37,184 nucleotides of DNA from a virus (lineage: Duplodnaviria > Caudoviricetes), in IMG/VR virus record IMGVR_UViG_3300037483_001167, positions 1-37,184 of that record. The stretch is one strand, 5' to 3'. Position numbers and translations under genes: made by a program. The notes below the pieces were generated by a model, which saw only the letters and a list, made by a program, of their open reading frames with translations, searched no databases and was not told where the DNA came from. Each line of letters opens with the position of its first letter. The stretch's first letter is position 1. Shown one piece after another: positions 2,981 to 25,766 of this stretch.

Positions 2981-3313
2981 TCACCCGCGGCTCCAGGACA
3001 GCGCCGCCAATACCAGCGAGGCCAGAGCGGCGAAAACCGGAATCGACTTGAACCAGGGTACGGTGTCGGCCTTGCCGGCGATTTTTGTATCCAGATCCCG
3101 GTCGTGACTGAAGAGCATTTCGAGGAGCCGCCGGTCCTCTTCCTGATCGCGCCGCAGGGAAACCAGCTGTTCGCCCTGCCGGGCCAGCGTTTCCATGACC
3201 GTCGTCTGTCGGTCCAGGTGCCGCTCGATCTTCTCGAACGTCTTCTCGTAACGCTCGTTGACCACCCTTTGCGCATTCCAGGCGTCCGTCTTCACACAGG
3301 CCCCCTGCGTCAT
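2981..3313 (-). CDS. Coiled-coil protein with C-terminal transmembrane helix (holin/XhlA-like layout)
   Basis: AAGGGAGG RBS; helical body and hydrophobic C-terminus IPVFAALASLVLAALSW; first gene of lysis block. Confidence 0.7.
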   Translation of the reverse strand: MTQGACVKTDAWNAQRVVNERYEKTFEKIERHLDRQTTVMETLARQGEQLVSLRRDQEEDRRLLEMLFSHDRDLDTKIAGKADTVPWFKSIPVFAALASLVLAALSWSRG

Positions 3314-3676: not shown

Positions 3677-6600
3677 TTATTCTTGCCGCCGTAGCTGTTG
3701 CCGGTACAGCAGTTCACGGCGGTCCGGCTTCCACCTCAGCGCCCGGATCAGGGTGCCGCCGTTCAGGTCGGGCACCAGCACGCCGCCCGGCGCTTCCCGG
3801 AGGTCGCGCTTGAATTCGCGGATCGCCTCCATCGCCTCCTGGCGCTCCTCCTGCGTGTCCGCGATCCGCCAGCGGGCCAGCACGTCCGCCTTGCGGTTGG
3901 TCCAGTGCTGCCGAGCCCGGACGGTGTCCCACCGCGCCTCCGATTCCTTCGACGGCCGAAGAGGCATGAAGCCGAAGGCCCGGATGACCCCTTCGCCGGC
4001 GGTATATCTCTCTTGTTTTCCGTCGCCGCCGAAGACCGGCCCCCCGCTCATGGTCGTCGCCCCGTCGGTGGCGTTGCGCACGCCGCGCAGAGCGTTGGCG
4101 ATGAACTGGGGCGATACGTATTCCGCCGCCCGCCAGAAATCCCCCTTGCCGGCCGCATCCATCCCGTAGACTACCTTCTGCGCCATCCCGCCCCAGACCC
4201 CCGTCACCCGCTCGGCCATGCTCTCGTCCTCGGCCGAGAACCAGGGGACATTCACCGCAAGCGCCCGGCTGAAGTTCACCCCGCCGAGCGCCGGAGCCCC
4301 GTGCAGCACGAAGTCCGCGATCTGGTCGCCGAAGTCGGTGTAGTTTCCGGCGGTTTCCCTTAACCACTTCTCCAGCATCCGCAAGGGGCGCTCGCCGAAG
4401 ATCCGGCGATACCACTTGTCCAGGTCGTCGCCGAAGGGGACGGCCGCCAACCCGCCGAAGAGCACCAGGGCGGTGAGCGAGCGCGCCACCACGGCGAACT
4501 CCTTATTTTGGAGACTGGTGAACATCCCCAGTAGATAGTTGTGAGGGTAGCTCTGGAAGGTGTACAGGGTGCGCCCAATCGGCCCCAGCTTGCGCAGCAG
4601 AGCAGGGATGTTTTCCTTGCCGATAACGAAATGCACGTCGTCGGAAAACTTCATCGCCTTCTCCAGCGCCGCCTCTTTACTCAACCCCTCGGCCCGGGCC
4701 ACGCGAAACATGGCCAGCAGGGCCGGTTCGCGGTTCCAGTAGGTCTCCACCATCTGGAAGGGCATCATCGACTTCTCCGTCAGCCAGCGCACGGCCGACT
4801 GCCCCTTCCCCATCACCCCGCCGGTGTCGTCCAGCCCACTCATGGACCGCACGTAGTTGGCGCTGGTGCGACCTTTGCGCGATCCCTCTTCCAGAGCCCA
4901 TCTCTCCTCCTCGGTGAGAATGCTTTCCTTGCCGGCCTTGATGAGCAGGTGGTCCTTGACCACATCGTGCTGCGCCTTGAGCAGCTTGCGGGTGGCTCCC
5001 TTGGTGTGTTTCGAAAGTACCGCCTGCCCCCAGATGTAGTTCTGAGTCCCGTTGAGCGCCGCCGAACTTATCTTAAACCCCAAAAACATCAGGGCCGCGA
5101 AGGAGCGCAGGGTCCCCAGCACCTGGTCGACGTAGGTGGCATTTTTCAGCGCGTCGTCCACGTAGTGTTTCACCCAGATCTTATCCTCGCCCTGATCGGC
5201 AGGAATCTCCCCCATCACCTTGTTTGCCCGCATGGCGAACTCGGCCTTAGAGAGGTATCCCGCCATGCCGCCAACAAACTGGGAGATGATCGCCGGGGTG
5301 TTCTCCGTCTCGTACCCCTCGATCAGATCTTTAGACCGGTGCATCTTGTGTTTGCCAAATCCTCGGACGCTGATCTCCTCGTGCAGGATTTCCAGCATCT
5401 GGTTCTGCAGCCCCAGCGGGTTATCGATACGCCCTGCGGCGTTCAGCTCCTCCACGATTTTGGAGAACAGGGCCTCGATTGAGCGGTGGCTTCCGAGCCC
5501 CATGAAGATCTCTTCCGGAGTGGCCCTGTTCTTCTCCACTCTCACCTCGTAGGCGGCCCCCTCCCTGTAACGCCGCGGGATGAACTCCCTGAGGCGGTTT
5601 TTCCCTAATGCGTCGTCGATATCCGCCTTCAGCCAGTTGGCCCCGCCCTTCGTTTTGGCAGGCCGCATAAAGACCTCGGCGAGCTCTCCGGTCTCGGTGT
5701 CGACCTCGTAGACCTTGACGTGCCACCGCCCGTCCTTGCGCAGGCGCGGCAGATAACCTTTCAGTTTCCCCCAGTCGGCTTTCAGCTCGGCAAGACGGCT
5801 GTCGTACTCCTGTACGCCCTTGTAGGCGTTGAACAGCTCCAGCTTTTGCATCATGGGGTGGTCTTCTCTTTTTTCCAGAAGCTCCACGAGCGTCTTGTAC
5901 CACTGGGCCTTCAGGTGCTTCTCGGCGGTGGTGATCTTCTTGTCGCCAAGCTGCTTTCTCACTTCTCTGAATGCCTCGACGAGGTCCCAGCTCTTATAGT
6001 AGTCGTTTTCCACCTGGGCGGCGGACACACCCCTCTCGATCAGCTGCCGCAGAAGCGTACTCCATGCCTGCGTGTTGTAGGGTTTAATCAGAACGTCGAG
6101 CCTCTTTCTGCTCGACTGGATACCCAGGTAGGCGGCGATGGCCTCCTGGTTAATGCCGAGTCGGCGCTTCACTTCGTCGGCCGAGAGCCCCTCGTCCAGC
6201 AGATCGATCAGCTCCTGGTAGTACTCCTGCCCTTCATGGGGGAGCAGACGCAGCCGCCCCAGGCGGTCGAAGAGCACCTCCGTCGCTTTGGCGATGGTTT
6301 GCCTGGCAGCGAAATACGCCTTCTTCACCACCTCCGCCACAGTCCGACCCAGTGGGTTGTCCGTGCCGTCCAGCTGCTCCTCGGTGTACTCGACGCTCTT
6401 CTCGTCGCCCACCACCAGGATCTTGTCGATATCCCCCTTCTCGTCCTTCTTCGCCCTGCCGTGGTGGTCGCGAAAGCCCTCCAGCCCCTCGTAATCGCCA
6501 TCCGTCGACATAATGTCGACCTTCATCTCGTTGGCGTTGTCACTGCGCTTCAGGGACAGGTCGTAAACGTCCGTGCGGGGCTTCGACTTCTTGCTGTCGT

Positions 6601-9600
6601 AATGGGGGTTGGAGAGCACGCTGGCGAAGCCGGTCTTTAACTCCGGCGGCAGCCAGTCGGAGAAGGATTCAAAGACCATCTTCATTCGCTTCGCAGTGAG
6701 CTTGCCGGCAAAAACCTTTGTCGCCTCGGTTCTATCCCGGACGCTCTGGACTATTGAGAACTTGAAGTCCTCCCCGTCCGTCTCGGCCCGCGTCCCCCCC
6801 ACCGCCTTCATGATCAGCTCGTCCGAAATCCCCGCCGCCCGCAGCTCCCGCAGGATCGCGGCCCCGTCGATGCGCTGCCCCAGATACCCCGCGTCGCGCT
6901 CCTGGGCGTACTTCTCGTACATCCCCTTCCGGGCCTTCTCCCCGTACCGCAAAAGCGCTTTGGCCACGACCGCCCGGGTCTGGGTCAGATCCGAAACATA
7001 GCGCTCCACGCCCTTGCGGGTCGAGAGGAGCTGCAGCGCTCTGGAGAGGAGCGCCACCGCCTTGCGGGCGATGCGCCGGAAGACGGTCGGAGCCGCCTCG
7101 GCCATCTCCTGCCAGAAGAGCTCGTTCATGAAGTTGTGGCCGACCACGTCGCCCACCAGCTCCTCGAACTGCTCGTCCTCGGTGAGGGACGCATAGCGCT
7201 TGTCCGAGAGGGTCGCGCGGTACTCGGCCCAGTTGCGGATCAGCGGCCGCAGTCCGTCCGTCAACTCCTTCCACAGCGCCGGGTCCTCCTTGCGCAGCGA
7301 ATGGGCCAGCTCGTGCCCCGTCAGGCGCAGCAGGTGCTCCGGAGCCGCCACGTTCAGATAGATCAGATCGGGGCGTCCGGGGTGGACGAATCCGCCGACG
7401 ATCCCCGACGGGCGGCCAGCTTCTCCCTGATCGCCTCGTCCGGCCATCCCAGCCCGCGCAGAATCGCCGGCAGGCTGCTTGTCTTGTAATGCCGCAGTAT
7501 CCCCGGCCCCGACAGATCCAGGTCTTCCGGTACCCGGTCCCCGCTGGCGGAAGAAGACGATGGTTTTTCCAAAACTCTTGGCGACTTCCCGCAGGGCATC
7601 GACGTTCCCTCCTTTTACGAAAACTTGCTCCAGGTTCTCCGTCTCCAGCACCTTGCGGATAAACGGCAACGGCCGCGACGGCGTGACGGCCACCTCGCCC
7701 AGGCCCGAGTCGCCGGTCAGGATCGTCTGGCGGACGGAATACAGCGCTACTCCCTTTTCCGTCTCTTTTGTCTCCACCGTCTCGAAGAAACGGTCGAACG
7801 CCGCCCGGATCCCCGGCATCTCCTCCTCGGTCGGATAGGGATAACTCGCCTCCTTCTCCAGCCCCAGCGCCGCCGTCGCCTCCCAGTACTGCTCGGAGAC
7901 GATATTGGCCAGATAGTCGTTCGAGGCGCCCTGGTCCTGCAGCCGGGCGATAACATAGGCCTCGAAGGAACGCGCGGCCTGCTCCAGGTTCGTGGACCAG
8001 TAATCCTTGCTCCGGGTTGCATCGAGCTTTCGGGAGCGCCCTTTCATCCCCGTGGCGGCAATGGCGTCCATGATCCCCTTGAACGCCTGGACCATCTCCG
8101 GACGCACCCCGTCGCCCCTCGGGCTCTCCGTCATGTATCCGTCCCGACGGCCGGTCATGCGGGCGAAATAATTATCGATGCCATGAAAGAGCTCGTGGGC
8201 CAGCGAGCCCGCCCCGTCGCCCTTGGTCAGGTTGATCACGACCGTATCCGGCTCGTAGTGGGCCTTGGCCGCATGCGTCCCCCCCTTGCCCCTGGCGCCG
8301 AACGCCAGACCCAGCTCCCCGTTCAAAAAAAGAGCCTTCGGAGGCAGGTCCAGCACCCCGGCCAGATCCATCAGGGCGTCGTAAGCCTCGTTCAGATCCC
8401 GCTGCCGGCGATCGTTCTCCACGTAGTTACCGAACTGAACTCCGCGCGGAGCAAAGGTCTCGGCAAACGATTCCGGCGTCACGTCGCCGCCGCTGCGGTG
8501 GTCGATCCCCACCCGGGGCGTGTTGCCCTCCCGGCGTTCGGCGGGGATCTCCTTGAACGTCTTCAGTAGACTCTCTAGCTCCGACTGGTTTTGTGCCAGG
8601 TAGGCCCTCGCCTCCTGAACCGTGGCGAAATCCTTGAGACGCACCACATCCCGCCCGAGTTTCTTGCCGATGAAGACTTTTTGGGTGGTCGTGTCCGAGT
8701 AGAGATTAAAGCGCACCTGCTTTTCGGCCTTCTCGTTCAGGTCGGTCTCGCCGAATTTCTTTTTGAAGTCGGCAATCGCCGCCTCCTTCGTGTCCCCCTG
8801 TCCCAGCACGCGCGGCCAGTTGGAGAACGCCGTCGTCTTGGCCTTCTTCTCCACTGCCCAGATGACCTTCGGGGGGTTGTATTGTTTGCCCTCGAAGACC
8901 CCGTAGCTCCCTGCCGAGACATGGATTCCCTTCAGGCTCTTCTCGTGCCCCACCGCCTGGTACAGCTCCGCCCTGCCGGTCAGGGACGGCCTGAGGCGGG
9001 CGACGATCCCTTCCTTGCCGAGAATCTTCTCCGTTTGTTCCCGTGAGAGACTTCCGTCGAGCAGGGCCTGCGCGTTTTCCCTCAGCTCCCCGGTCCGTTC
9101 CGCCCACCCCTTGAGCTTCCACCCCTTCTGGGGCTTGCTGGGGACCTCGTCCCGCAGGGAGCGGACGAAGGCCACCGTCCACGGATCGGCGCCTTCATTG
9201 AGGAGCTTGGCGTAATCGGGCTCGGGCCACGACTTCGAAAGGGGCTCGGCGGCGATATCCGCCTCCATGGCACTCTCCATCTTGTCCCGGTAGGCCTCGG
9301 CGTACATTTTCCGTGCGCCCTCCAGCACCTCCCCAAAATCCCCGATAGCCTCTTTCTTTGTTTCCGCCTTGACCCGCCCCTGTTGCGGCTTTACGGACTC
9401 GGCCACCGGCTGCGCCTGCTCCACCTCGATGTTCGGGTCGAAGACCGCGACGGTCCCTGAGACCTCCATCCAGATATTGTTCGGCCCCAGATCGCTGACG
9501 ACGTGACCGGTTTCCTTGTGGCGCCACTTGAGATACTTGAAGGCGCGGATGCCGAGCTTGGCGAACTTGGGGTCTTCGAAGGACTCGAAGCCCTTGCCTT

Positions 9601-12600
9601 CGAAGTAGGCGCGGATCTCGGCCTCGGTGGCGTCGCGCTGCCGCTCGGAAAAGGGCTGCGAGACGCGCGCCATGAAGGCGCTCCCCTGGGAATAAGGGGC
9701 GTCGCTGAAGCCGAGCAGGGTATAGGCGGTTTCGGGGAAGTGGCGGGCGTGCGCTTCGAGGCGGTCGAGATAGTCCGACCAGGTTTCGTCGGGCCACAGG
9801 ACCTTGCGCTTATGGACGAGGCCGGAGTCAGCCTCAAGTATAACCTGTTGTTCGGTCCCCTGAATAGGTCGCCCTTCACGCTCGGTCTGAGCGTTCCAGG
9901 CGTCAGTGAACCCCTTGTGGTCGGCTAGGAGGTCGTTTTGCTCGGCCCATCGGCGGAGGGCGTCGGACTGACGCTTTTGGAGAGTTTCGACGGTTCCTGA
10001 ATCCTGTTCGATGCCCTGAATTGCTCTCCGAACTTCCGCAATTCTTCGTCCGCCGGTGCCTTGAAGGTTTCCTTCACCAGTGTCATTGTCTTTCTCCTTT
10101 TCCGCCTTACCGGCGGCGGGGCTTACTTCCCGGCGCTCTGCTGCGCCTCCCGTCGTTTCAGCACTTCCTGCTGTTCTTTCTCGCTCTCCACCCCTCGCCG
10201 GGCCAGTTCCGCGTACAGCTCCTCCGGCTTGTCCTCCAGGTGCGACAGTCCCAGCCGCTTCAGGCGCTCGTGCGTCGACATCGGTTGCCTCCTTCTTGAG
10301 TTCTTCTACTTTTCGATCTACTTCGCTGCGCAGCTTCTCCGGGGTCTTGAACCCCCGGAACTCTCCCGCCGCCCCAACGATCCCGACCCCCGGAGCCCGT
10401 CCCTGCTTGCTGTGGGCGATGCGGTCCAGGCCGTGTTTCCTGGCATAAAGTGTAGCACGGTTTTGCGCTGCTGCCAGCGCCTTTTTCACCTCTACGTCCG
10501 AGGCGTCCGGCACCACCGCGCCGAACTCGTCGCCGCCCTTGCGGAAAACCTGCGCCTGCGGCGAAATCTTCTCCATCTCCTCCCTGACGATCCCGGCAAG
10601 CGCCTTCAGGTGCGGATCGGCACCGGAGGTACCCAGGGCGGAGTTCATCCCTCCCAGGTTGCGCACGTCGATCTCGGCGTAGGAGAAGTTGCGCCCCTTC
10701 GTCTCGAATTCGCTCCAGGCGCGGGCCAGGGTCGGTTCGAAGTGCTTGACCGGGATCAGTCCCGTCACCGGGTCGGCGGAGCGTTCCGCCTGGCGGCGCT
10801 CCTCGACGATAGCCCGGTGGGCCGGATGGTCCGCGTCCAGTCCATGTTTGACGAGTATCTGTGATTCGCTTTGCGCCTGAACGTCCGCCTGGTGGAGAAA
10901 TAGCCCCCGCTGCTCCTCTGTCAGCTCGTCTTCCAAGTCGACCTTGGCCGCGGTCTCGGTCTTGCCTGCGGCGACCACCTTACCGGCGCCGGCAAGATGA
11001 TCATGGACCTCCGCCAGATCCGCAGCCCTGAAGACCTCTGCCCCCGCTTTGTCCGTGATTGAAAACGAGCCGTCTTTCTGTTTGATCGAAAGATTCAGTC
11101 CCCGGGCGAGCGCCTGCCGCTTCAGGATCGGATGGGTGAGCTGCGACGGCGGCACTGCCGGAATCGAAGCGGCCCGTTCCGGAGACTGCCCGAATTGTTC
11201 CACCAGTTGCCGGTATCCTTCGTCAATCGGCAGCTCGGCCACGCGTCGCACCGCCTCGGCAAAATCCTTCCGAGACTGTCCCACCTGCGGCCTCAGCGTC
11301 ACATCCCGCCCGTCCACCGCAAAGGTGATCGAAGAAGCCGAAGCGGCCTTGATCGAGATCCCGGAGGTTTCTTCCGCCGGTTCCCTGGCGACGCCCCCCA
11401 GCGGCGCGGAGGTATCTCCGTCTCTGAGCCAGCCCTTGAACTGCTCGGCATTCATCTCCGTCAGCGCCCCCAGGCGCTGATCCCCCTTGCCGTCCGAAAA
11501 ACCCGACCGATACAGCTCGGCGGCGGCGTCCCGGTCGGCGGTACCGAGAATCACTTTGTGTTCGTCGAAAGCGCCGGTCTGGTGGTCCAGCTGATCCACC
11601 ACGAACACCTTCTCGCTCTCCGGTTGCGGACCGACATAGACATCCACGAACTCGCCGTCGGCGCCCTCGGTCTTGCGGATATAGCCGTAGTGCGCCGGCA
11701 TCGTCACCGACCAGTCCTTGCCATCCGGATCGGTGCCGCTGCGTTCGGACCCCTGCGGGTTCTCGATGGAGATATCCAGCCCGAGAAGCCGCAGCTTCCC
11801 TTTCTTGTAATTCCCCGCCTCGATCTGCGCCGGTGTCGGTTCCGGTGTATCGTTGGTCGGCGACGTGGCCGCCTCGTGGGCCTTGGCGTCGACCTCCGGG
11901 GAGACCGTTTTCGTGATTCGGGACTCGGGACCTGTCCCTAAATCCCCCCCCCGCACTGCGGGCATTTCTTCCTGCGCCCCGCCGACTTCTTGCCGCATTC
12001 CGGACAGATCATTGTTGACTCCTTCTCGATAGAGGGGCGCACCCCCGCCAGCCAGCTTCCTGCGGCTCTCGGCGATCTGCCCGTCGCTCATTCCCTTTGT
12101 AGCCAGCCGCTCGTTGACCATCTCGTCGATCTGCTGCGAGAGGATCGCCGTCCCCTCCGGAGTGACGGCGATAGCCGGAGCCGGCAGAGCGAGGGTCGGC
12201 GTCGCAGGCAGCGCCTTATCCTTTGCCCTTTCCAGAGCTCCCGCCGGTTTCGGAGCCATGCCCGCAGCGGGCGCCGGAGGCGTAACTGCGGCCGGTGCGC
12301 CCGTCGCGCGTCCGTCCGCCGCTTCCTGGATCAGATCGATTCCCACCGGGCCCTTCTGTGCCTGGGGAGCCGCCATCGACTGCCACAGGTCGGCCAGCTC
12401 GCCGTCGCGCTCCCGCAGTTCGGCCTCGACCAGACCCACCGCCTTCAGGCGCGTCTCCAGCGGGACCCCTTCGAGGGTCAGTGCGTCGTGAACCGCTCTT
12501 CTCTTTGCATTGGATTGAATCCCCGCACCGGTCCCCAGAAGCCCCGCCATGATGATGGTCGGGCCGATCACGGGGGCCACGTCAGCAAAGCCCGGCATCT

Positions 12601-13477
12601 CCGGCCGCTGCCCGTAAGCGTAGTCGGCCGAGCCGCCCGCGTATTCCTGACTCATCTCCATCGGCACTTCGGCGGCGATCGTCTTGAGGATGTCCTTGCC
12701 GATATCCAGGGGGGCCTTGCGGTTGGCACCGGCTATCCGCGCAATCAGTTTGCCCTGCAGCCCCTTCGGCAGCATCTTGGAAATTTTGAAAGGGACGAAG
12801 GATTGCAGCGCCTCGACGCCCCCTTCGGCCGCTCCCTTCAGATTGGCGTAGTCCACCCGGTCGGATTCAGGGAGCCCCTCGGCCTCGTCGTACGCCTGCT
12901 GCGCCGTATCCCCCCAGAACTGCCCGCCCGTCACCGCCGCCCCGACGATCGGGTTACCCGTCGCCACCGTCGCCGCCAGGCCCGGCGCCATCATGCCCAG
13001 GCTCTCCATCCCCGGATAGACCCAGCCGCGAACGTTCCACGGGCTCTCCTCGCGCTCCGCCACGCTGGTCTTCGACTCGGCGAACGTCCCGGCGTTGCGG
13101 GCCAGGCGCTCGTCTACCCACTCGGCCGCGCCGCGTCCCGCCTCCTCGACGGCCGACCCTTCCGGTGCGAACCACTGCGCCGCCCGGGCCACCCCGGCCG
13201 CGCCGCGCATGAAGCCCGAGGTCCCCGCACGCACCACATCGCCGCCCAGTCCCGAGGCGCCATCCCCATTAGGCCGCGAGTTCTCGTAGGCCTCCTGTTC
13301 GATCTCCTGCGCGCGGGCCTCGAGGTAAGGCTTGTCTTCGGCCGGCGAGGGTTGATCTTTCGGCAGATACTTGTCCAGGCGCGGCGTCGCCGTTTTTTGT
13401 TCCGCACGCGGAGACGGTGCAGGGGGAGCCTCTTCGGCGGGTTCGTCTTTCGGCAGGTATTTTTCGAGAAAGGACAT
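3677..13477 (-). CDS. Giant (3266 aa) polyvalent internal virion / DNA-ejection protein: InPase-like, GGDEF, kinase-like, LPD5, HExxH peptidase + LPD1, second HExxH peptidase, PLxRFG-like C-terminus
   Basis: Single 9.8-kb ORF after the small ejection genes. Motifs: AGNYKKG..ISIENP.GS.R...HYGYI..TEGADG..VDVYVG...FDEHKV; DPVTG...RKGGDEF; GTEQQV...DLGPNN...FDP; IGDFGEVLEGARK...SKSWPEPDY; RGVQFGNYV...LAHELFH...YWS...ARSFEAYV; GHELAH; YLPRLRKDG. Confidence 0.9.
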   Translation of the reverse strand: MSFLEKYLPKDEPAEEAPPAPSPRAEQKTATPRLDKYLPKDQPSPAEDKPYLEARAQEIEQEAYENSRPNGDGASGLGGDVVRAGTSGFMRGAAGVARAAQWFAPEGSAVEEAGRGAAEWVDERLARNAGTFAESKTSVAEREESPWNVRGWVYPGMESLGMMAPGLAATVATGNPIVGAAVTGGQFWGDTAQQAYDEAEGLPESDRVDYANLKGAAEGGVEALQSFVPFKISKMLPKGLQGKLIARIAGANRKAPLDIGKDILKTIAAEVPMEMSQEYAGGSADYAYGQRPEMPGFADVAPVIGPTIIMAGLLGTGAGIQSNAKRRAVHDALTLEGVPLETRLKAVGLVEAELRERDGELADLWQSMAAPQAQKGPVGIDLIQEAADGRATGAPAAVTPPAPAAGMAPKPAGALERAKDKALPATPTLALPAPAIAVTPEGTAILSQQIDEMVNERLATKGMSDGQIAESRRKLAGGGAPLYREGVNNDLSGMRQEVGGAQEEMPAVRGGDLGTGPESRITKTVSPEVDAKAHEAATSPTNDTPEPTPAQIEAGNYKKGKLRLLGLDISIENPQGSERSGTDPDGKDWSVTMPAHYGYIRKTEGADGEFVDVYVGPQPESEKVFVVDQLDHQTGAFDEHKVILGTADRDAAAELYRSGFSDGKGDQRLGALTEMNAEQFKGWLRDGDTSAPLGGVAREPAEETSGISIKAASASSITFAVDGRDVTLRPQVGQSRKDFAEAVRRVAELPIDEGYRQLVEQFGQSPERAASIPAVPPSQLTHPILKRQALARGLNLSIKQKDGSFSITDKAGAEVFRAADLAEVHDHLAGAGKVVAAGKTETAAKVDLEDELTEEQRGLFLHQADVQAQSESQILVKHGLDADHPAHRAIVEERRQAERSADPVTGLIPVKHFEPTLARAWSEFETKGRNFSYAEIDVRNLGGMNSALGTSGADPHLKALAGIVREEMEKISPQAQVFRKGGDEFGAVVPDASDVEVKKALAAAQNRATLYARKHGLDRIAHSKQGRAPGVGIVGAAGEFRGFKTPEKLRSEVDRKVEELKKEATDVDARAPEAAGTVAPGGQAGGAVRGTGPARGGERERTAGSAETTGGAAERREVSPAAGKAEKEKDNDTGEGNLQGTGGRRIAEVRRAIQGIEQDSGTVETLQKRQSDALRRWAEQNDLLADHKGFTDAWNAQTEREGRPIQGTEQQVILEADSGLVHKRKVLWPDETWSDYLDRLEAHARHFPETAYTLLGFSDAPYSQGSAFMARVSQPFSERQRDATEAEIRAYFEGKGFESFEDPKFAKLGIRAFKYLKWRHKETGHVVSDLGPNNIWMEVSGTVAVFDPNIEVEQAQPVAESVKPQQGRVKAETKKEAIGDFGEVLEGARKMYAEAYRDKMESAMEADIAAEPLSKSWPEPDYAKLLNEGADPWTVAFVRSLRDEVPSKPQKGWKLKGWAERTGELRENAQALLDGSLSREQTEKILGKEGIVARLRPSLTGRAELYQAVGHEKSLKGIHVSAGSYGVFEGKQYNPPKVIWAVEKKAKTTAFSNWPRVLGQGDTKEAAIADFKKKFGETDLNEKAEKQVRFNLYSDTTTQKVFIGKKLGRDVVRLKDFATVQEARAYLAQNQSELESLLKTFKEIPAERREGNTPRVGIDHRSGGDVTPESFAETFAPRGVQFGNYVENDRRQRDLNEAYDALMDLAGVLDLPPKALFLNGELGLAFGARGKGGTHAAKAHYEPDTVVINLTKGDGAGSLAHELFHGIDNYFARMTGRRDGYMTESPRGDGVRPEMVQAFKGIMDAIAATGMKGRSRKLDATRSKDYWSTNLEQAARSFEAYVIARLQDQGASNDYLANIVSEQYWEATAALGLEKEASYPYPTEEEMPGIRAAFDRFFETVETKETEKGVALYSVRQTILTGDSGLGEVAVTPSRPLPFIRKVLETENLEQVFVKGGNVDALREVAKSFGKTIVFFRQRGPGTGRPGSVGAGDTAALQDKQPAGDSARAGMAGRGDQGEAGRPSGIVGGFVHPGRPDLIYLNVAAPEHLLRLTGHELAHSLRKEDPALWKELTDGLRPLIRNWAEYRATLSDKRYASLTEDEQFEELVGDVVGHNFMNELFWQEMAEAAPTVFRRIARKAVALLSRALQLLSTRKGVERYVSDLTQTRAVVAKALLRYGEKARKGMYEKYAQERDAGYLGQRIDGAAILRELRAAGISDELIMKAVGGTRAETDGEDFKFSIVQSVRDRTEATKVFAGKLTAKRMKMVFESFSDWLPPELKTGFASVLSNPHYDSKKSKPRTDVYDLSLKRSDNANEMKVDIMSTDGDYEGLEGFRDHHGRAKKDEKGDIDKILVVGDEKSVEYTEEQLDGTDNPLGRTVAEVVKKAYFAARQTIAKATEVLFDRLGRLRLLPHEGQEYYQELIDLLDEGLSADEVKRRLGINQEAIAAYLGIQSSRKRLDVLIKPYNTQAWSTLLRQLIERGVSAAQVENDYYKSWDLVEAFREVRKQLGDKKITTAEKHLKAQWYKTLVELLEKREDHPMMQKLELFNAYKGVQEYDSRLAELKADWGKLKGYLPRLRKDGRWHVKVYEVDTETGELAEVFMRPAKTKGGANWLKADIDDALGKNRLREFIPRRYREGAAYEVRVEKNRATPEEIFMGLGSHRSIEALFSKIVEELNAAGRIDNPLGLQNQMLEILHEEISVRGFGKHKMHRSKDLIEGYETENTPAIISQFVGGMAGYLSKAEFAMRANKVMGEIPADQGEDKIWVKHYVDDALKNATYVDQVLGTLRSFAALMFLGFKISSAALNGTQNYIWGQAVLSKHTKGATRKLLKAQHDVVKDHLLIKAGKESILTEEERWALEEGSRKGRTSANYVRSMSGLDDTGGVMGKGQSAVRWLTEKSMMPFQMVETYWNREPALLAMFRVARAEGLSKEAALEKAMKFSDDVHFVIGKENIPALLRKLGPIGRTLYTFQSYPHNYLLGMFTSLQNKEFAVVARSLTALVLFGGLAAVPFGDDLDKWYRRIFGERPLRMLEKWLRETAGNYTDFGDQIADFVLHGAPALGGVNFSRALAVNVPWFSAEDESMAERVTGVWGGMAQKVVYGMDAAGKGDFWRAAEYVSPQFIANALRGVRNATDGATTMSGGPVFGGDGKQERYTAGEGVIRAFGFMPLRPSKESEARWDTVRARQHWTNRKADVLARWRIADTQEERQEAMEAIREFKRDLREAPGGVLVPDLNGGTLIRALRWKPDRRELLYRQQLRRQE
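7363..7599 (-). CDS. Nested +1-frame ORF D (78 aa) inside the giant gene
   Basis: AAGGAGG at 7608-7614, 8 nt before ATG; overlaps a G/R/A-rich insertion in the second peptidase region; core LRHYKTSSLPAILRGLGWPDEAIREKLAARR looks protein-like. Confidence 0.55.
   Translation of the reverse strand: MPCGKSPRVLEKPSSSSASGDRVPEDLDLSGPGILRHYKTSSLPAILRGLGWPDEAIREKLAARRGSSADSSTPDAPI
9925..10086 (-). CDS. Nested +1-frame ORF C (53 aa) MTLVKETFKAPADEELRKFGEQFRASNRIQEPSKLSKSVSPTPSADGPSKTTS
   Basis: AAGGAG at 10094-10099, 7 nt before ATG; directly in front of the kinase-like domain. Confidence 0.55.
   Translation of the reverse strand: MTLVKETFKAPADEELRKFGEQFRASNRIQEPSKLSKSVSPTPSADGPSKTTS
10123..10281 (-). 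CDS. Nested +1-frame ORF B (52 aa) MSTHERLKRLGLSHLEDKPEELYAELARRGVESEKEQQEVLKRREAQQSAGK
   Basis: AAGGAGG at 10288-10294, 6 nt before ATG; 43 of 51 non-start codons end in G/C by hand count, while the host frame becomes A/T-ending and low-complexity; starts right after the GGDEF domain. Confidence 0.7.
   Translation of the reverse strand: MSTHERLKRLGLSHLEDKPEELYAELARRGVESEKEQQEVLKRREAQQSAGK
11938..12012 (-). CDS. Nested +1-frame ORF A (24 aa) zinc-ribbon peptide MICPECGKKSAGRRKKCPQCGGGI
   Basis: AAGGAG at 12019-12024, 6 nt before ATG; two CPxCG knuckles; just before the InPase-like domain. Confidence 0.65.
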   Translation of the reverse strand: MICPECGKKSAGRRKKCPQCGGGI

Positions 13478-23717: not shown

Positions 23718-25754
23718 TTAGGCTCCAATGGGTGCTTTGTACCACGCAGCATTCGGCCCGGCGTAGCCGCCAACATTCGGGAAATATCCGGCAAAATGGT
23801 CGCCATCGGCAGCGTTTCGTCCGAGATTCACGCTTGCTGGTGTCCATGCAATCACGCTGCCGGTTACGTCGGTGTCGATGTCTGCCGTGTCAAGCGAAAG
23901 CGCCCAATCTCCCGCCAAACCCTTGACACCTATGGCGTGGGTTGTGCCTGCGGTGAGGGTTGCCACCCCCGAGAGGGTCGTTACGCCGTCGGTGAAGATC
24001 AGGTTGGTGCCGTTGTAGCTCAGTTTGTTGGTGCCGTCGTCAAGCAGCGTCCCGGCCGTGGACGTCGCTGCGGGGATAACCACCAGCTGCAGCTGGGTTC
24101 CGAGGGCGAGCATTGGTGCTGTCAGGTTCGTTGCTGACCTGGGGACCATGGCTCCGGCTGTATCAATCCACGGGCTGGCAAACGCCCCCGCTTCAACTTG
24201 GACCCGTGAGAGCGTCCCTGTGACGGTGCAGGTCAGCGTCCCTGCCGTGGCTGTGACGGTCAGCGGTGAGCCTTCCGTAGCTGTTCCTGTCGCTGTTCCT
24301 GAGACGGTCACGTCCCCGGTGCCGAGAACGTTGATGGTGTACGCCTGCGCCGTCGTCGTGATGTTTTGCGTGACCGGAACAGTAGAATTGAGAAAGAGGT
24401 TCGTCCGCGATGGCCAGTTGGAATACCCGAACGCCGACGCGAACGGCTCTTGATACCACTTCTTTGTGCCGGACCGCGTGGGGATGCTGATTGAGGGTTG
24501 GATGCTATTCGAGGAACGTCTGGCGGCAGCAATCACACCTCCCGCAATGGCCTCTATCTCGTCTCCCAGTAAATCATACCCGGTGTCGTTAGGATGCAGA
24601 CCGTCACCAGAGTCATAGGTAGCAGCTAGTGCCGTACCATCCGCCAGTAGTGAGTACATATCAACAATTGGAATATTTGAAGAAGCTGCGTAGGTGGAAA
24701 GACCACTATTATACGCCAAAGTCTCGACTTGACGGGCTGCGCCCCAGCTTATGAAATTACTCCACGGCCCAATATTGATAAGAACCACAGGCAACGATGC
24801 TGATTGCGCCATCTCTACCATATATATGGTATTTGCAAGCATATCAGTGGCTAGTTGACTCGCCGTTATGTCATTTACGCCCCCCTGTATGATTGCGACA
24901 TTTCGACCAGATACATTAATTACATCTGCCATAAACCGAGCAACCATATCCGACAACTTGTTACCCTGAATCCCGGCATTAACTAACATGGAGTATGGGT
25001 TAATCGTATCGAGCCGTGTTAGGTACCGTCCAGTCGCCGTAAAAGAATCACCCACTGCAACAACATAGGTCACTGGATTTTTCCTGTCGACATAATCCAA
25101 CCACGTCGGGACGACCCGTTTAATGCTTACATCGCCCGTTGATAAGTCGACGGTATCCCCGGTATTTACATTAACCTGAAAATACGCCGTGGTGTCGGCG
25201 GCTGTAATTGTGTAATCAAGTTCATAAGTCCCACTTTCTGAAATAACCACTAAATTTGCTCTGTTCCCTCCCGCCCCGCTTGGGTCGCCGGCAAAGGTAA
25301 CCCTAACAGGCCCACCAGCGTTTATGGTTATGGGAAGTGTCACTCTAAATTTGTCGCCAACGGACACGTCAAAAATGTCAGTAGAAGCACACCCGCCGAT
25401 ATTGGCAGATGTTTCAATTGCCGAAGCGATAGCCCTTCCAACAGATGTTAACGTGTCAAATTTAAACGCCTCGTTTGTGCCGTTATTCCACCCGCTCAAG
25501 GCTTCCGGCCCCAGCGTCGCCCCTTCAGCAACCGTCGTAGCCAGCCGTCCCCCCTCAAGCGCAGGAACCCCCGCAGGAGACGTGACGAGGTTGCCGAGGT
25601 AGTCGGTGGCCGTGAGAGGACCACCGGCGTACGTCGGGGAGTTTTGCAGGAGGTTGAAGAGGTCGGTGACATCCCTGCCCGGCCCCAGCCCTCCCCCCGT
25701 CCCGTTAAGCCGCTGCATCCCCAGACTGTTCAATCTCTGAAACGCTCCCAGCAT
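23718..25754 (-). CDS. Tail spike/fibre-like protein with SGNH/GDSL esterase domain
   Basis: VAVGDSFT, NAGIQG, IIQGGVND, DGLHPN blocks; Thr/Gly-rich beta regions; ATG 25754 has AAGGAG 8 nt upstream. Confidence 0.8.
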   Translation of the reverse strand: MLGAFQRLNSLGMQRLNGTGGGLGPGRDVTDLFNLLQNSPTYAGGPLTATDYLGNLVTSPAGVPALEGGRLATTVAEGATLGPEALSGWNNGTNEAFKFDTLTSVGRAIASAIETSANIGGCASTDIFDVSVGDKFRVTLPITINAGGPVRVTFAGDPSGAGGNRANLVVISESGTYELDYTITAADTTAYFQVNVNTGDTVDLSTGDVSIKRVVPTWLDYVDRKNPVTYVVAVGDSFTATGRYLTRLDTINPYSMLVNAGIQGNKLSDMVARFMADVINVSGRNVAIIQGGVNDITASQLATDMLANTIYMVEMAQSASLPVVLINIGPWSNFISWGAARQVETLAYNSGLSTYAASSNIPIVDMYSLLADGTALAATYDSGDGLHPNDTGYDLLGDEIEAIAGGVIAAARRSSNSIQPSISIPTRSGTKKWYQEPFASAFGYSNWPSRTNLFLNSTVPVTQNITTTAQAYTINVLGTGDVTVSGTATGTATEGSPLTVTATAGTLTCTVTGTLSRVQVEAGAFASPWIDTAGAMVPRSATNLTAPMLALGTQLQLVVIPAATSTAGTLLDDGTNKLSYNGTNLIFTDGVTTLSGVATLTAGTTHAIGVKGLAGDWALSLDTADIDTDVTGSVIAWTPASVNLGRNAADGDHFAGYFPNVGGYAGPNAAWYKAPIGA

Positions 25755-25766
25755 GGACTGCACTCC

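Follow-up and report, generated by a model that had tools for sequence, protein, structure and literature searches.

The window analysed here, the whole 37,184-nucleotide stretch of IMG/VR virus record IMGVR_UViG_3300037483_001167 (Caudoviricetes), is a virus record of 37 kb that encodes an integrase, a terminase, a P22-like portal, a capsid and an adaptor protein as well as internal virion proteins. On its minus strand lies a giant gene that joins several unrelated conflict domains and LPD domains in one large polypeptide and stands among the late/virion genes of this terminase-portal phage; judged by domain content and position, its product is a polyvalent protein as defined in the main text of Iyer et al. 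2017 (PMC5512222). Nested inside this gene, beside its enzymatic domains, are four small open reading frames (ORFs), A to D, which are the subject of this work. The giant, its enzymatic domains and the nested elements are the following.

3677..13477, minus strand: giant polyvalent-protein gene (3,266 codons), final gene of the virion/ejection block of a podovirus-like temperate phage
12019..12024, minus strand: Shine-Dalgarno (SD) sequence AAGGAG of A
11938..12012, minus strand: nested ORF A, frame +1, 24 amino acids (aa), basic, two CxxC, zinc-ribbon-like
11426..11830, minus strand: InPase domain, aa 550-684 (Pfam PF18823, E 2.5e-52)
10289..10777, minus strand: GGDEF domain, aa 901-1063, GGDEF motif intact (Pfam PF00990, E 9.7e-11)
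10288..10294, minus strand: SD sequence AAGGAGG of B, encoding Lys-Glu at the end of the GGDEF domain
10123..10281, minus strand: nested ORF B, frame +1, 52 aa, a conserved family directly behind polyvalent GGDEF domains
10094..10099, minus strand: SD sequence AAGGAG of C
9925..10086, minus strand: nested ORF C, frame +1, 53 aa, ending within the first helix of the kinase
9422..9976, minus strand: Kinase-PolyVal domain, aa 1168-1352 (Pfam PF18762, E 4e-16)
7608..7614, minus strand: SD sequence AAGGAGG of D, in a 5-codon insertion seen only in loop-bearing peptidases
7363..7599, minus strand: nested ORF D, frame +1, 78 aa, spanning the peptidase loop
6908..7729, minus strand: predicted zincin-like metallopeptidase region (H2055-E-L-A-H2059, E2106; low-confidence loop at aa 1981-2025)

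An initial annotation had proposed four ORFs in one frame, each led by AAGGAG(G) 6-8 nucleotides (nt) before an ATG, three of them missing from the ORF track. All four are present at these coordinates in a single frame (+1 to the giant), with spacers of 6 (A), 6 (B), 7 (C) and 8 nt (D), and the list of ORFs of 60 aa or more shows D only. Each has its own ribosome-binding site (RBS), and its start and stop lie wholly within another ORF in another frame, as in a nested gene. The domain neighbours are also where they had been placed: A before InPase, B after GGDEF, C before the kinase and D inside the peptidase, the latter recognised by its HExxH motif and predicted topology without a family match.

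To assess how often such a pattern arises, we searched for AAGGAG followed by 4-11 nt, an off-frame ATG and an ORF of at least 20 aa. The pattern occurs four times in the 9.8-kb giant (A to D and none else) and once in 19,974 nt of 19 other window genes, so that comparable ORFs are not found at an equal rate elsewhere in the window. In 2,000 synonymous-codon shuffles of the giant the mean was 0.44 matches, and none reached four. The sole control match is an AAGGAG-led 20-codon ORF in +1 of the portal gene (window 30761), for which codon support was not seen; we set aside the giant's further SD-led off-frame starts (at 8274, 12 aa; at 4901, 74 aa in +2; and those at GTG/TTG), which lack codon support. 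Sharing a frame is weak evidence by itself: the giant has 90 ATGs in +1 against 9 in +2, a tenfold difference, and AAGGAG falls mostly in frame 0. A frameshift or sequencing error was rejected as a source of the pattern: the giant frame is open, X4 contigs differ by 0-1 over the covered pieces, and the homologues are open too.

The expectation that the giant's own frame turns into G/R/A-rich linker with unusual codons, while the nested frame reads as protein, held for part of the set. G+C at third codon positions is 0.80 in the giant frame overall and 0.60, 0.36, 0.50 and 0.61 over A, B, C and D, where the nested frames reach 0.83, 0.85, 0.72 and 0.76. By island score, the codon flip is strong over B (43) and partial over C (15), where it covers the first 20 codons, and over D (22), where it is confined to the core; A shows none. 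Likewise, G+R+A makes up 0.57 of the giant frame over B and 0.53 over the D core, against 0.29 overall, whereas A (0.38) and the first part of C (0.37) do not show a comparable enrichment. Where C (in its last third) and D (at both ends) run over conserved enzyme sequence, the off-frame peptide is Ser/Pro-rich. From sequence evidence of this kind, A to D as a set are very probably translated genes; individually, this seems almost certain for B, highly probable for A, only a little less so for C, and probable for D.

A gene overprinted de novo is expected to fit the codon usage less well, and to be less conserved, than the frame that hosts it. Here codon fit favours the small frames over the giant frame, and so does conservation in the comparisons made for A and B. 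The direction first envisaged, in which an inhibitor overprints the effector gene, hence looks reversed: gene-like codons and higher identity lie in the small frame and the giant frame is linker, so it looks as if the linker overprints the small gene, not the small gene the enzyme gene.

We then surveyed other giants. A set of 135 loci (L numbers) yielded 121 ORFs of at least 1,200 aa, including that of the window and excluding the duplicates L004, L086 and L136; these were reduced to 78 below 60% identity. With a conservative filter that misses A (SD energy ≤ -7, ATG, at least 20 aa, codon log-ratio >3), we found 33 codon-supported nested ORFs, all in +1, in 21 of the 78 giants (745 kb); the 256 control genes (432 kb) yielded a single one (p 4e-6). 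Pairing with domains was scored through local domain profiles and a codon-island scan (SD ≤ -5), with a stricter recount. A nested ORF lies upstream of the kinase in 5/7 cases (6/7 including L087, with an SD of -10.8 and low GC) and downstream of GGDEF in 3/6; in L066 and L078 other SD-led +1 ORFs begin in the GGDEF domain end but miss the island filter. ResIII helicases have one in 4/5 cases, all of one family, and in the fifth, L085, the same family stands further upstream, before a LAGLIDADG insert. The counts are 4/5 for SBNO (3/5 in the recount), 3/5 for the peptidase, and 11/14 for methyltransferases (MTases) followed by SNF2, vs 1/14 for other MTases. The random-window background is 6-10%; InPase has 10/75, with assorted families. 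Upstream nested ORFs are rare at ART (0/16), LPD1 (0/15), LPD5 (1/7) and LPD38 (0/17), 1/55 together. Both LPD domains that the Pfam search and pairing scan located in the window agree with this:

8456..8896, minus strand: LPD5 domain, without nested neighbour
7766..8026, minus strand: LPD1 domain, without nested ORF upstream

Nested ORFs thus travel with kinase, GGDEF, helicase/MTase and peptidase across shuffled giants and, as described below, also stand beside kinases outside giants. The idea of one antidote per domain is not supported: A is unlinked to InPase, and ART and LPD domains almost never have a nested neighbour.

Nested ORFs include known free-standing families, given that one MTase-SNF2 partner matches Pfam TnpV (E 9e-6, just under the cut-off) and two nested ORFs, in L091 and L105, are HNH-family. 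The latter (L091:9480-10238 and L105:9420-10004; 252 and 194 aa) are complete, SD-led +1 ORFs before InPase, with the giant frame open, in a ShiLan-like arrangement. The TnpV-like family was nested in +1 and unannotated in 3/3 cultured phages checked (10 records matched), in DarB-like genes:

Atu_ph08, L166:4001-4309: TnpV-like +1 ORF
VvAW1, L167:4001-4330: TnpV-like +1 ORF
SopranoGao, L168:4001-4327: TnpV-like +1 ORF

VvAW1 holds two further candidate nested ORFs, at 3239 and 3500. In L115, a nested ORF of the MTase-partner family matches the C-terminal end of phrog_938, a 2,185-position profile, which suggests an in-frame fusion or a split annotation in some phages.

B is the clearest case. 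It occurs in +1 directly after the GGDEF domain of L001 and L002, its nested frame is more conserved than the giant frame in 3/3 pairs (16 vs 6 of 28), and two homologues are already called as proteins in databases. Among the 150 GGDEF hits listed, 83 had the full domain end; working from protein, the B core is encodable in +1 above the 99th percentile of shuffles and in near-fixed register in 34 of these 83 tails (in 32 of these, an ATG-compatible dipeptide directly precedes the core), a count that is inflated because the GGDEF query contained the B-overlapping tail. A shorter, 7-residue compatibility test was discarded as too loose (42/115 vs 97/575 shuffled). We also compared the window with strain X10 (~97% identical), for which changes were counted among 40 of 252 differences listed. 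In the flanks, 23/29 listed changes are at third positions of the giant; in B, the 3/3 listed changes are silent in B and alter the giant, and B keeps its RBS and ATG. Searches of Pfam and PHROGs gave no credible match for B, C or D (a terminase-small-subunit match of B, E 0.006, was disregarded), the scan of viral contigs with the B alignment gave 133 pattern matches of which 0 were confirmed, and the scan with the C-terminal part of the giant found no match. Prediction of a GGDEF-B complex, from alignments of 26 and 5 rows, scored 0.00 in two runs without folded controls and speaks neither for nor against the pairing. By eye, the B homologue of L001 (10491-10718) carries an extension similar to nested ORFs found on their own in L083 and L085, so fusion between nested genes may occur. 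By analogy with small genes paired to enzymes, B is likely a cognate GGDEF regulator, either inhibitor or chaperone.

For C, compatible +1 readings in P0001 and P0005 (from protein only) score 123 and 90, vs shuffled maxima of 61 and 67. Giant kinases with an upstream nested ORF are 25-29% identical to the window kinase (four measured). Outside giants, we searched 401 genomes around G409 and 301 around G406 for Kinase-PolyVal, which turned up 27 places; another search added one. From these 28 loci, 4 partial matches were dropped, leaving 24. In bacterial genomes, 20/24 kinases have a 40-100-codon ATG ORF in +1 that ends at the kinase start, and 0/24 have one in +2; in 14 of the 20, the open frame is 213-301 codons, i.e. 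these are stand-alone genes. Several such genes with a small overlapping +1 ORF (within L140-L162) stand between housekeeping genes (HisRS, AlaRS, RelA/SpoT, OmpA). One partner family joins the stand-alone loci L140, L141 and L161 to an ORF nested in giant L072 (z 8-24; L161 z 24). The kinase with its small +1 gene therefore constitutes a module in and out of giants, and its stand-alone form is a candidate two-gene module resembling toxin-antitoxin pairs. The phage collection search gave no kinase match, a kinase family search of 401 genomes of the phylum of G003 returned the starting genome only, and an alignment of five kinases proved too diverse to scan loci with. The sequencing runs X10, X13 and X15 contain a contig with the same C start that then diverges (window 10068), and an X10 joint skips the end of A (window 11905-11950); allelic variants of nested genes may coexist. 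As with B, the likely role of C, by analogy, is that of a cognate kinase regulator (inhibitor or chaperone).

A and D behave differently. The two-CxxC peptide of A is found in +1, with purine-rich leader and ATG, at 7 other distinct loci (L001, L035, L062, L083, L084, L085 and L118), and 6/6 pairs show more conservation in its nested frame than in that of the giant (e.g. 16 vs 9 of 23); in P0001, P0004 and P0005, A was read from protein only. Zinc-ribbon Pfam matches are weak, below the cut-off. A had been assigned to InPase as its antidote, which is contradicted by its presence without InPase in L083 and after InPase in L118, and by 7 A loci in all against 75 InPase domains. Its sequence and distribution suggest that A is probably a passenger: a short, basic peptide encoded where a swappable site follows the N-terminal region. 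L035 has tandem zinc-ribbon-like +1 ORFs at giant aa 689-802, the second of the A family, and a further nested ORF right behind an HD-like domain (aa 1121-1168). Other small, often basic +1 families recur near InPase by eye (L044, L078, L131; L052, L061; L047, L077/L113, L167), and the low-GC giants L017-L038 hold a recurrent 60-85-codon +1 ORF family with AAGGAG at aa 520-700.

D lies in a region with an HExxH motif and predicted zincin topology (three strands, HExxH helix, distal Glu), for which there was no significant fold or sequence match. L083 (with a TTG start) and L113 share the RBS motif and likewise keep +1 open across the loop. The 5-codon insertion that codes for the RBS and the loop are together in 3/5 peptidase homologues and both missing in 2/5, and the loop over the D core is of low confidence in the structure model. 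Conservation in homologues, proposed as a check of the nested ORFs, was thus seen at the level of protein sequence for A and B, while D keeps its position and not its core. As far as sequence comparison goes, D is tied to the peptidase by position alone; it could work in cis or encode a peptide that varies.

From these data we propose that enzyme domains join the giant as cassettes of enzyme plus partner, and that the giant frame would read through each partner gene, giving a flexible, benign linker. The partner would be translated from the same late mRNA as the giant, and B and C would restrain or fold the GGDEF and kinase domains in the producing cell. From the position of its gene and the main text of PMC5512222, we infer that the giant is packaged and delivered at infection; the partner would stay behind, so that the enzymes become active only in the newly infected cell. 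The restraining or folding role of B and C, and their non-delivery, are suggested by analogy with toxin-antitoxin and effector-immunity pairs: for kinase with C and GGDEF with B, a small gene is consistently adjacent to an enzyme, and domain-specific regulators are, on this analogy, the best-supported reading of the two. We lean towards this partner model as a whole, if by a modest degree. The more specific idea, that an antidote gene doubles as inter-domain linker and that hidden, unannotated inhibitors or chaperones specific to kinases, GGDEF cyclases, helicase/MTase modules and peptidases are produced within the giant ORF, silence the payload at assembly and are left behind at injection, is held more tentatively and falls somewhat short of an even chance. 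A single +1 frame would be expected for two reasons. Ordinary window genes read in the relative frame of the giant (+2) give 47% G/R/A, 11% D/E and 1% stops, against 2% D/E, 8.5% C/W and 2.7% stops in the other frame, so the giant's reading over them is hydrophilic, G/R/A-rich and stop-poor. Besides, the short stop/start overlaps common in operons place the upstream gene in +1.

Several results speak against the partner model or narrow it. The read-through frame of low-GC giants is rich in stops (11.8 per 100 codons, vs 5.4) and their nested ORFs are still in +1; stop-poverty thus explains the frame at high GC only, and we ruled it out as sole cause in low-GC giants. The giants were collected mostly via InPase (75/78), and the pairing counts are not independent because modules are inherited as blocks; the GGDEF-tail count carries the inflation already mentioned. 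No partner ORF accompanies the kinase of L125 or the GGDEF of L003. ART domains, plausible toxins, have a nested neighbour on either side in 1/16 cases, so the partner rule is not general, and A lacks consistent adjacency to InPase. The kinase partners form several unrelated families, and a profile built from the 23 others does not recognise C. The stand-alone kinase frame of L141 begins at a strong start that precedes the small ORF; nesting can thus occur outside giants, and either cassette or giant may have come first. Lastly, the D cores of the window, L083 and L113 are unrelated though their peptidases are 44-59% identical, and of 9 listed D changes in X10, 3 are silent in D and 6 in the giant, with RBS and ATG kept.

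Other readings account for some of the same data. The nested ORFs could be passengers, real small genes with unrelated jobs, such as core proteins, homing endonucleases or regulators, that settled in tolerant linkers and hitch-hike with domains in recombination blocks. Since a nested gene must sit in a linker, it will be next to some domain anyway, and A, the assorted small basic ORFs near InPase (10/75, several families) and the nested HNH genes of L091 and L105 fit this picture. Yet kinases outside giants keep the +1 ORF at the same place (20/24) with unrelated flanking genes, one kinase-partner family spans both settings, and the ART/LPD linkers are almost empty, which makes passengers an unlikely general explanation. 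Alternatively, the act of translating the nested ORF could matter and not its product, through ribosome traffic, co-translational folding or internal-start coupling. D, which retains RBS, start region and stop position and not its core, would agree with such a cis-acting role, as would kinase partners that vary in sequence yet end at the domain start. The protein sequence of A and B is however conserved in the nested frame, and in the window the stops of B, C and D are not followed by an ATG in the giant's frame; we regard this reading as decidedly improbable.

Two further readings deny present translation. Engulfed genes could survive untranslated, as fossils in linker sequence; gene-like codons could outlast capture for some time, and A shows no codon flip. 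Against this, a strong RBS and the start are retained at 7/7 other loci with the A motif, and in the diverged strain for B and D, and recent B changes are silent in B, so that fossils appear very improbable. The ORFs could finally be a chance by-product of Lys-Glu codons (AAG GAG) and frequent +1 ATG. The +1 ATG excess and the frame-0 AAGGAG would explain why random matches share a frame, but not the lack of four matches in any of the shuffles, the 33 vs 1 nested ORFs of the survey or the conservation at protein level. Chance is hardly credible for the set; it is refuted for A, B and C, and D is the weakest case.

Nested genes as such are known. For instance, mobB is embedded in mobA of RSF1010, and Rz1 is the partner of its host gene's product. 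In type II toxin-antitoxin and effector-immunity pairs, kinase toxins such as HipA/HipT and Doc come with small antitoxins. The arrangement described here resembles the latter in that a small gene lies directly upstream of a kinase gene and overlaps it, also as a two-gene unit among housekeeping genes; it differs in that the partner is buried in the ORF of the putative effector itself. The Pfam and PHROGs searches gave no sequence link to known antitoxins. Rz1 embedded in Rz (described in PMC9144972) and comS embedded in srfA (described in PMC12350097) share with mobB, and with A to D, a same-strand, out-of-frame gene with its own start wholly inside another; they are single fixed pairs, whereas the nesting reported here is repeated, domain by domain, in a shuffling polyprotein. 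ShiLan, an out-of-frame HNH inside a phage methylase gene, is similar as portrayed in the relevant passages of PMC11855218: a whole gene in another frame, an open host frame and a host segment predicted to be a loop. According to those passages it is a single selfish homing endonuclease without RBS, unlike the several RBS-led, domain-paired small genes per host gene found here, and the Pfam/PHROGs searches found no HNH domain in A to D.

Ulx, an accessory protein of the phage P1 DarB system, is encoded by a separate gene. DarB is a giant injected MTase-helicase that needs small accessory proteins, with Ulx incorporated into the virion, according to the relevant parts of PMC12810830; giant injected enzyme and small accessory proteins are the common ground, while the window's giant is without MTase-helicase and Ulx is a virion component. 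As regards polyvalent proteins themselves, the main text of PMC5512222 reports them in phages and conjugative elements, proposes their assembly from solo modules and notes stand-alone kinases. Those proteins are likewise encoded among virion genes and include InPase, GGDEF, Kinase-PolyVal, LPD1, LPD5 and HExxH peptidase. Nested genes or partner proteins are not described in its relevant passages, and 'overlap', 'linker', 'TnpV' and 'small gene' have 0 occurrences in the main text. Full-text searches, covering mainly non-subscription papers, found none that describes nested genes in polyvalent or DarB-like genes. The nested architecture is real, widespread and apparently undescribed.

At least one unannotated nested gene is present in at least 21/78 sampled giants and in the cultured phages Atu_ph08, VvAW1 and SopranoGao; annotations, knock-outs and recoding of these genes therefore miss a layer. 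The proposed model offers a possible answer to how a phage could make and package many host-targeting enzymes in one polyprotein and yet spare the producing cell, and it suggests where the unusual G/R/A-rich linkers in polyvalent proteins may come from. Should B and C prove to be inhibitors, they would be new small modulators of a GGDEF cyclase and a minimal protein kinase; if the model is true, Kinase-PolyVal and its +1 partner would be an undescribed toxin-antitoxin-like module and B a 50-residue GGDEF inhibitor.

Regarding the setting of the gene, the nine sequencing runs with at least half of the region's words are sediment metagenomes, one of which may be the source, and no RNA data sets were listed as containing the region. 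Within the giant, a promoter/terminator scan found nothing promoter-like on the coding strand. In L085/L086 the same 4,451-aa giant appears twice on one contig, a possible assembly duplication, with the LAGLIDADG insert in its helicase. A gene with a GDSL esterase domain (window 23721-25763), of lower GC, stands among the virion genes of the window, and its start is probably at 25754, with AAGGAG.

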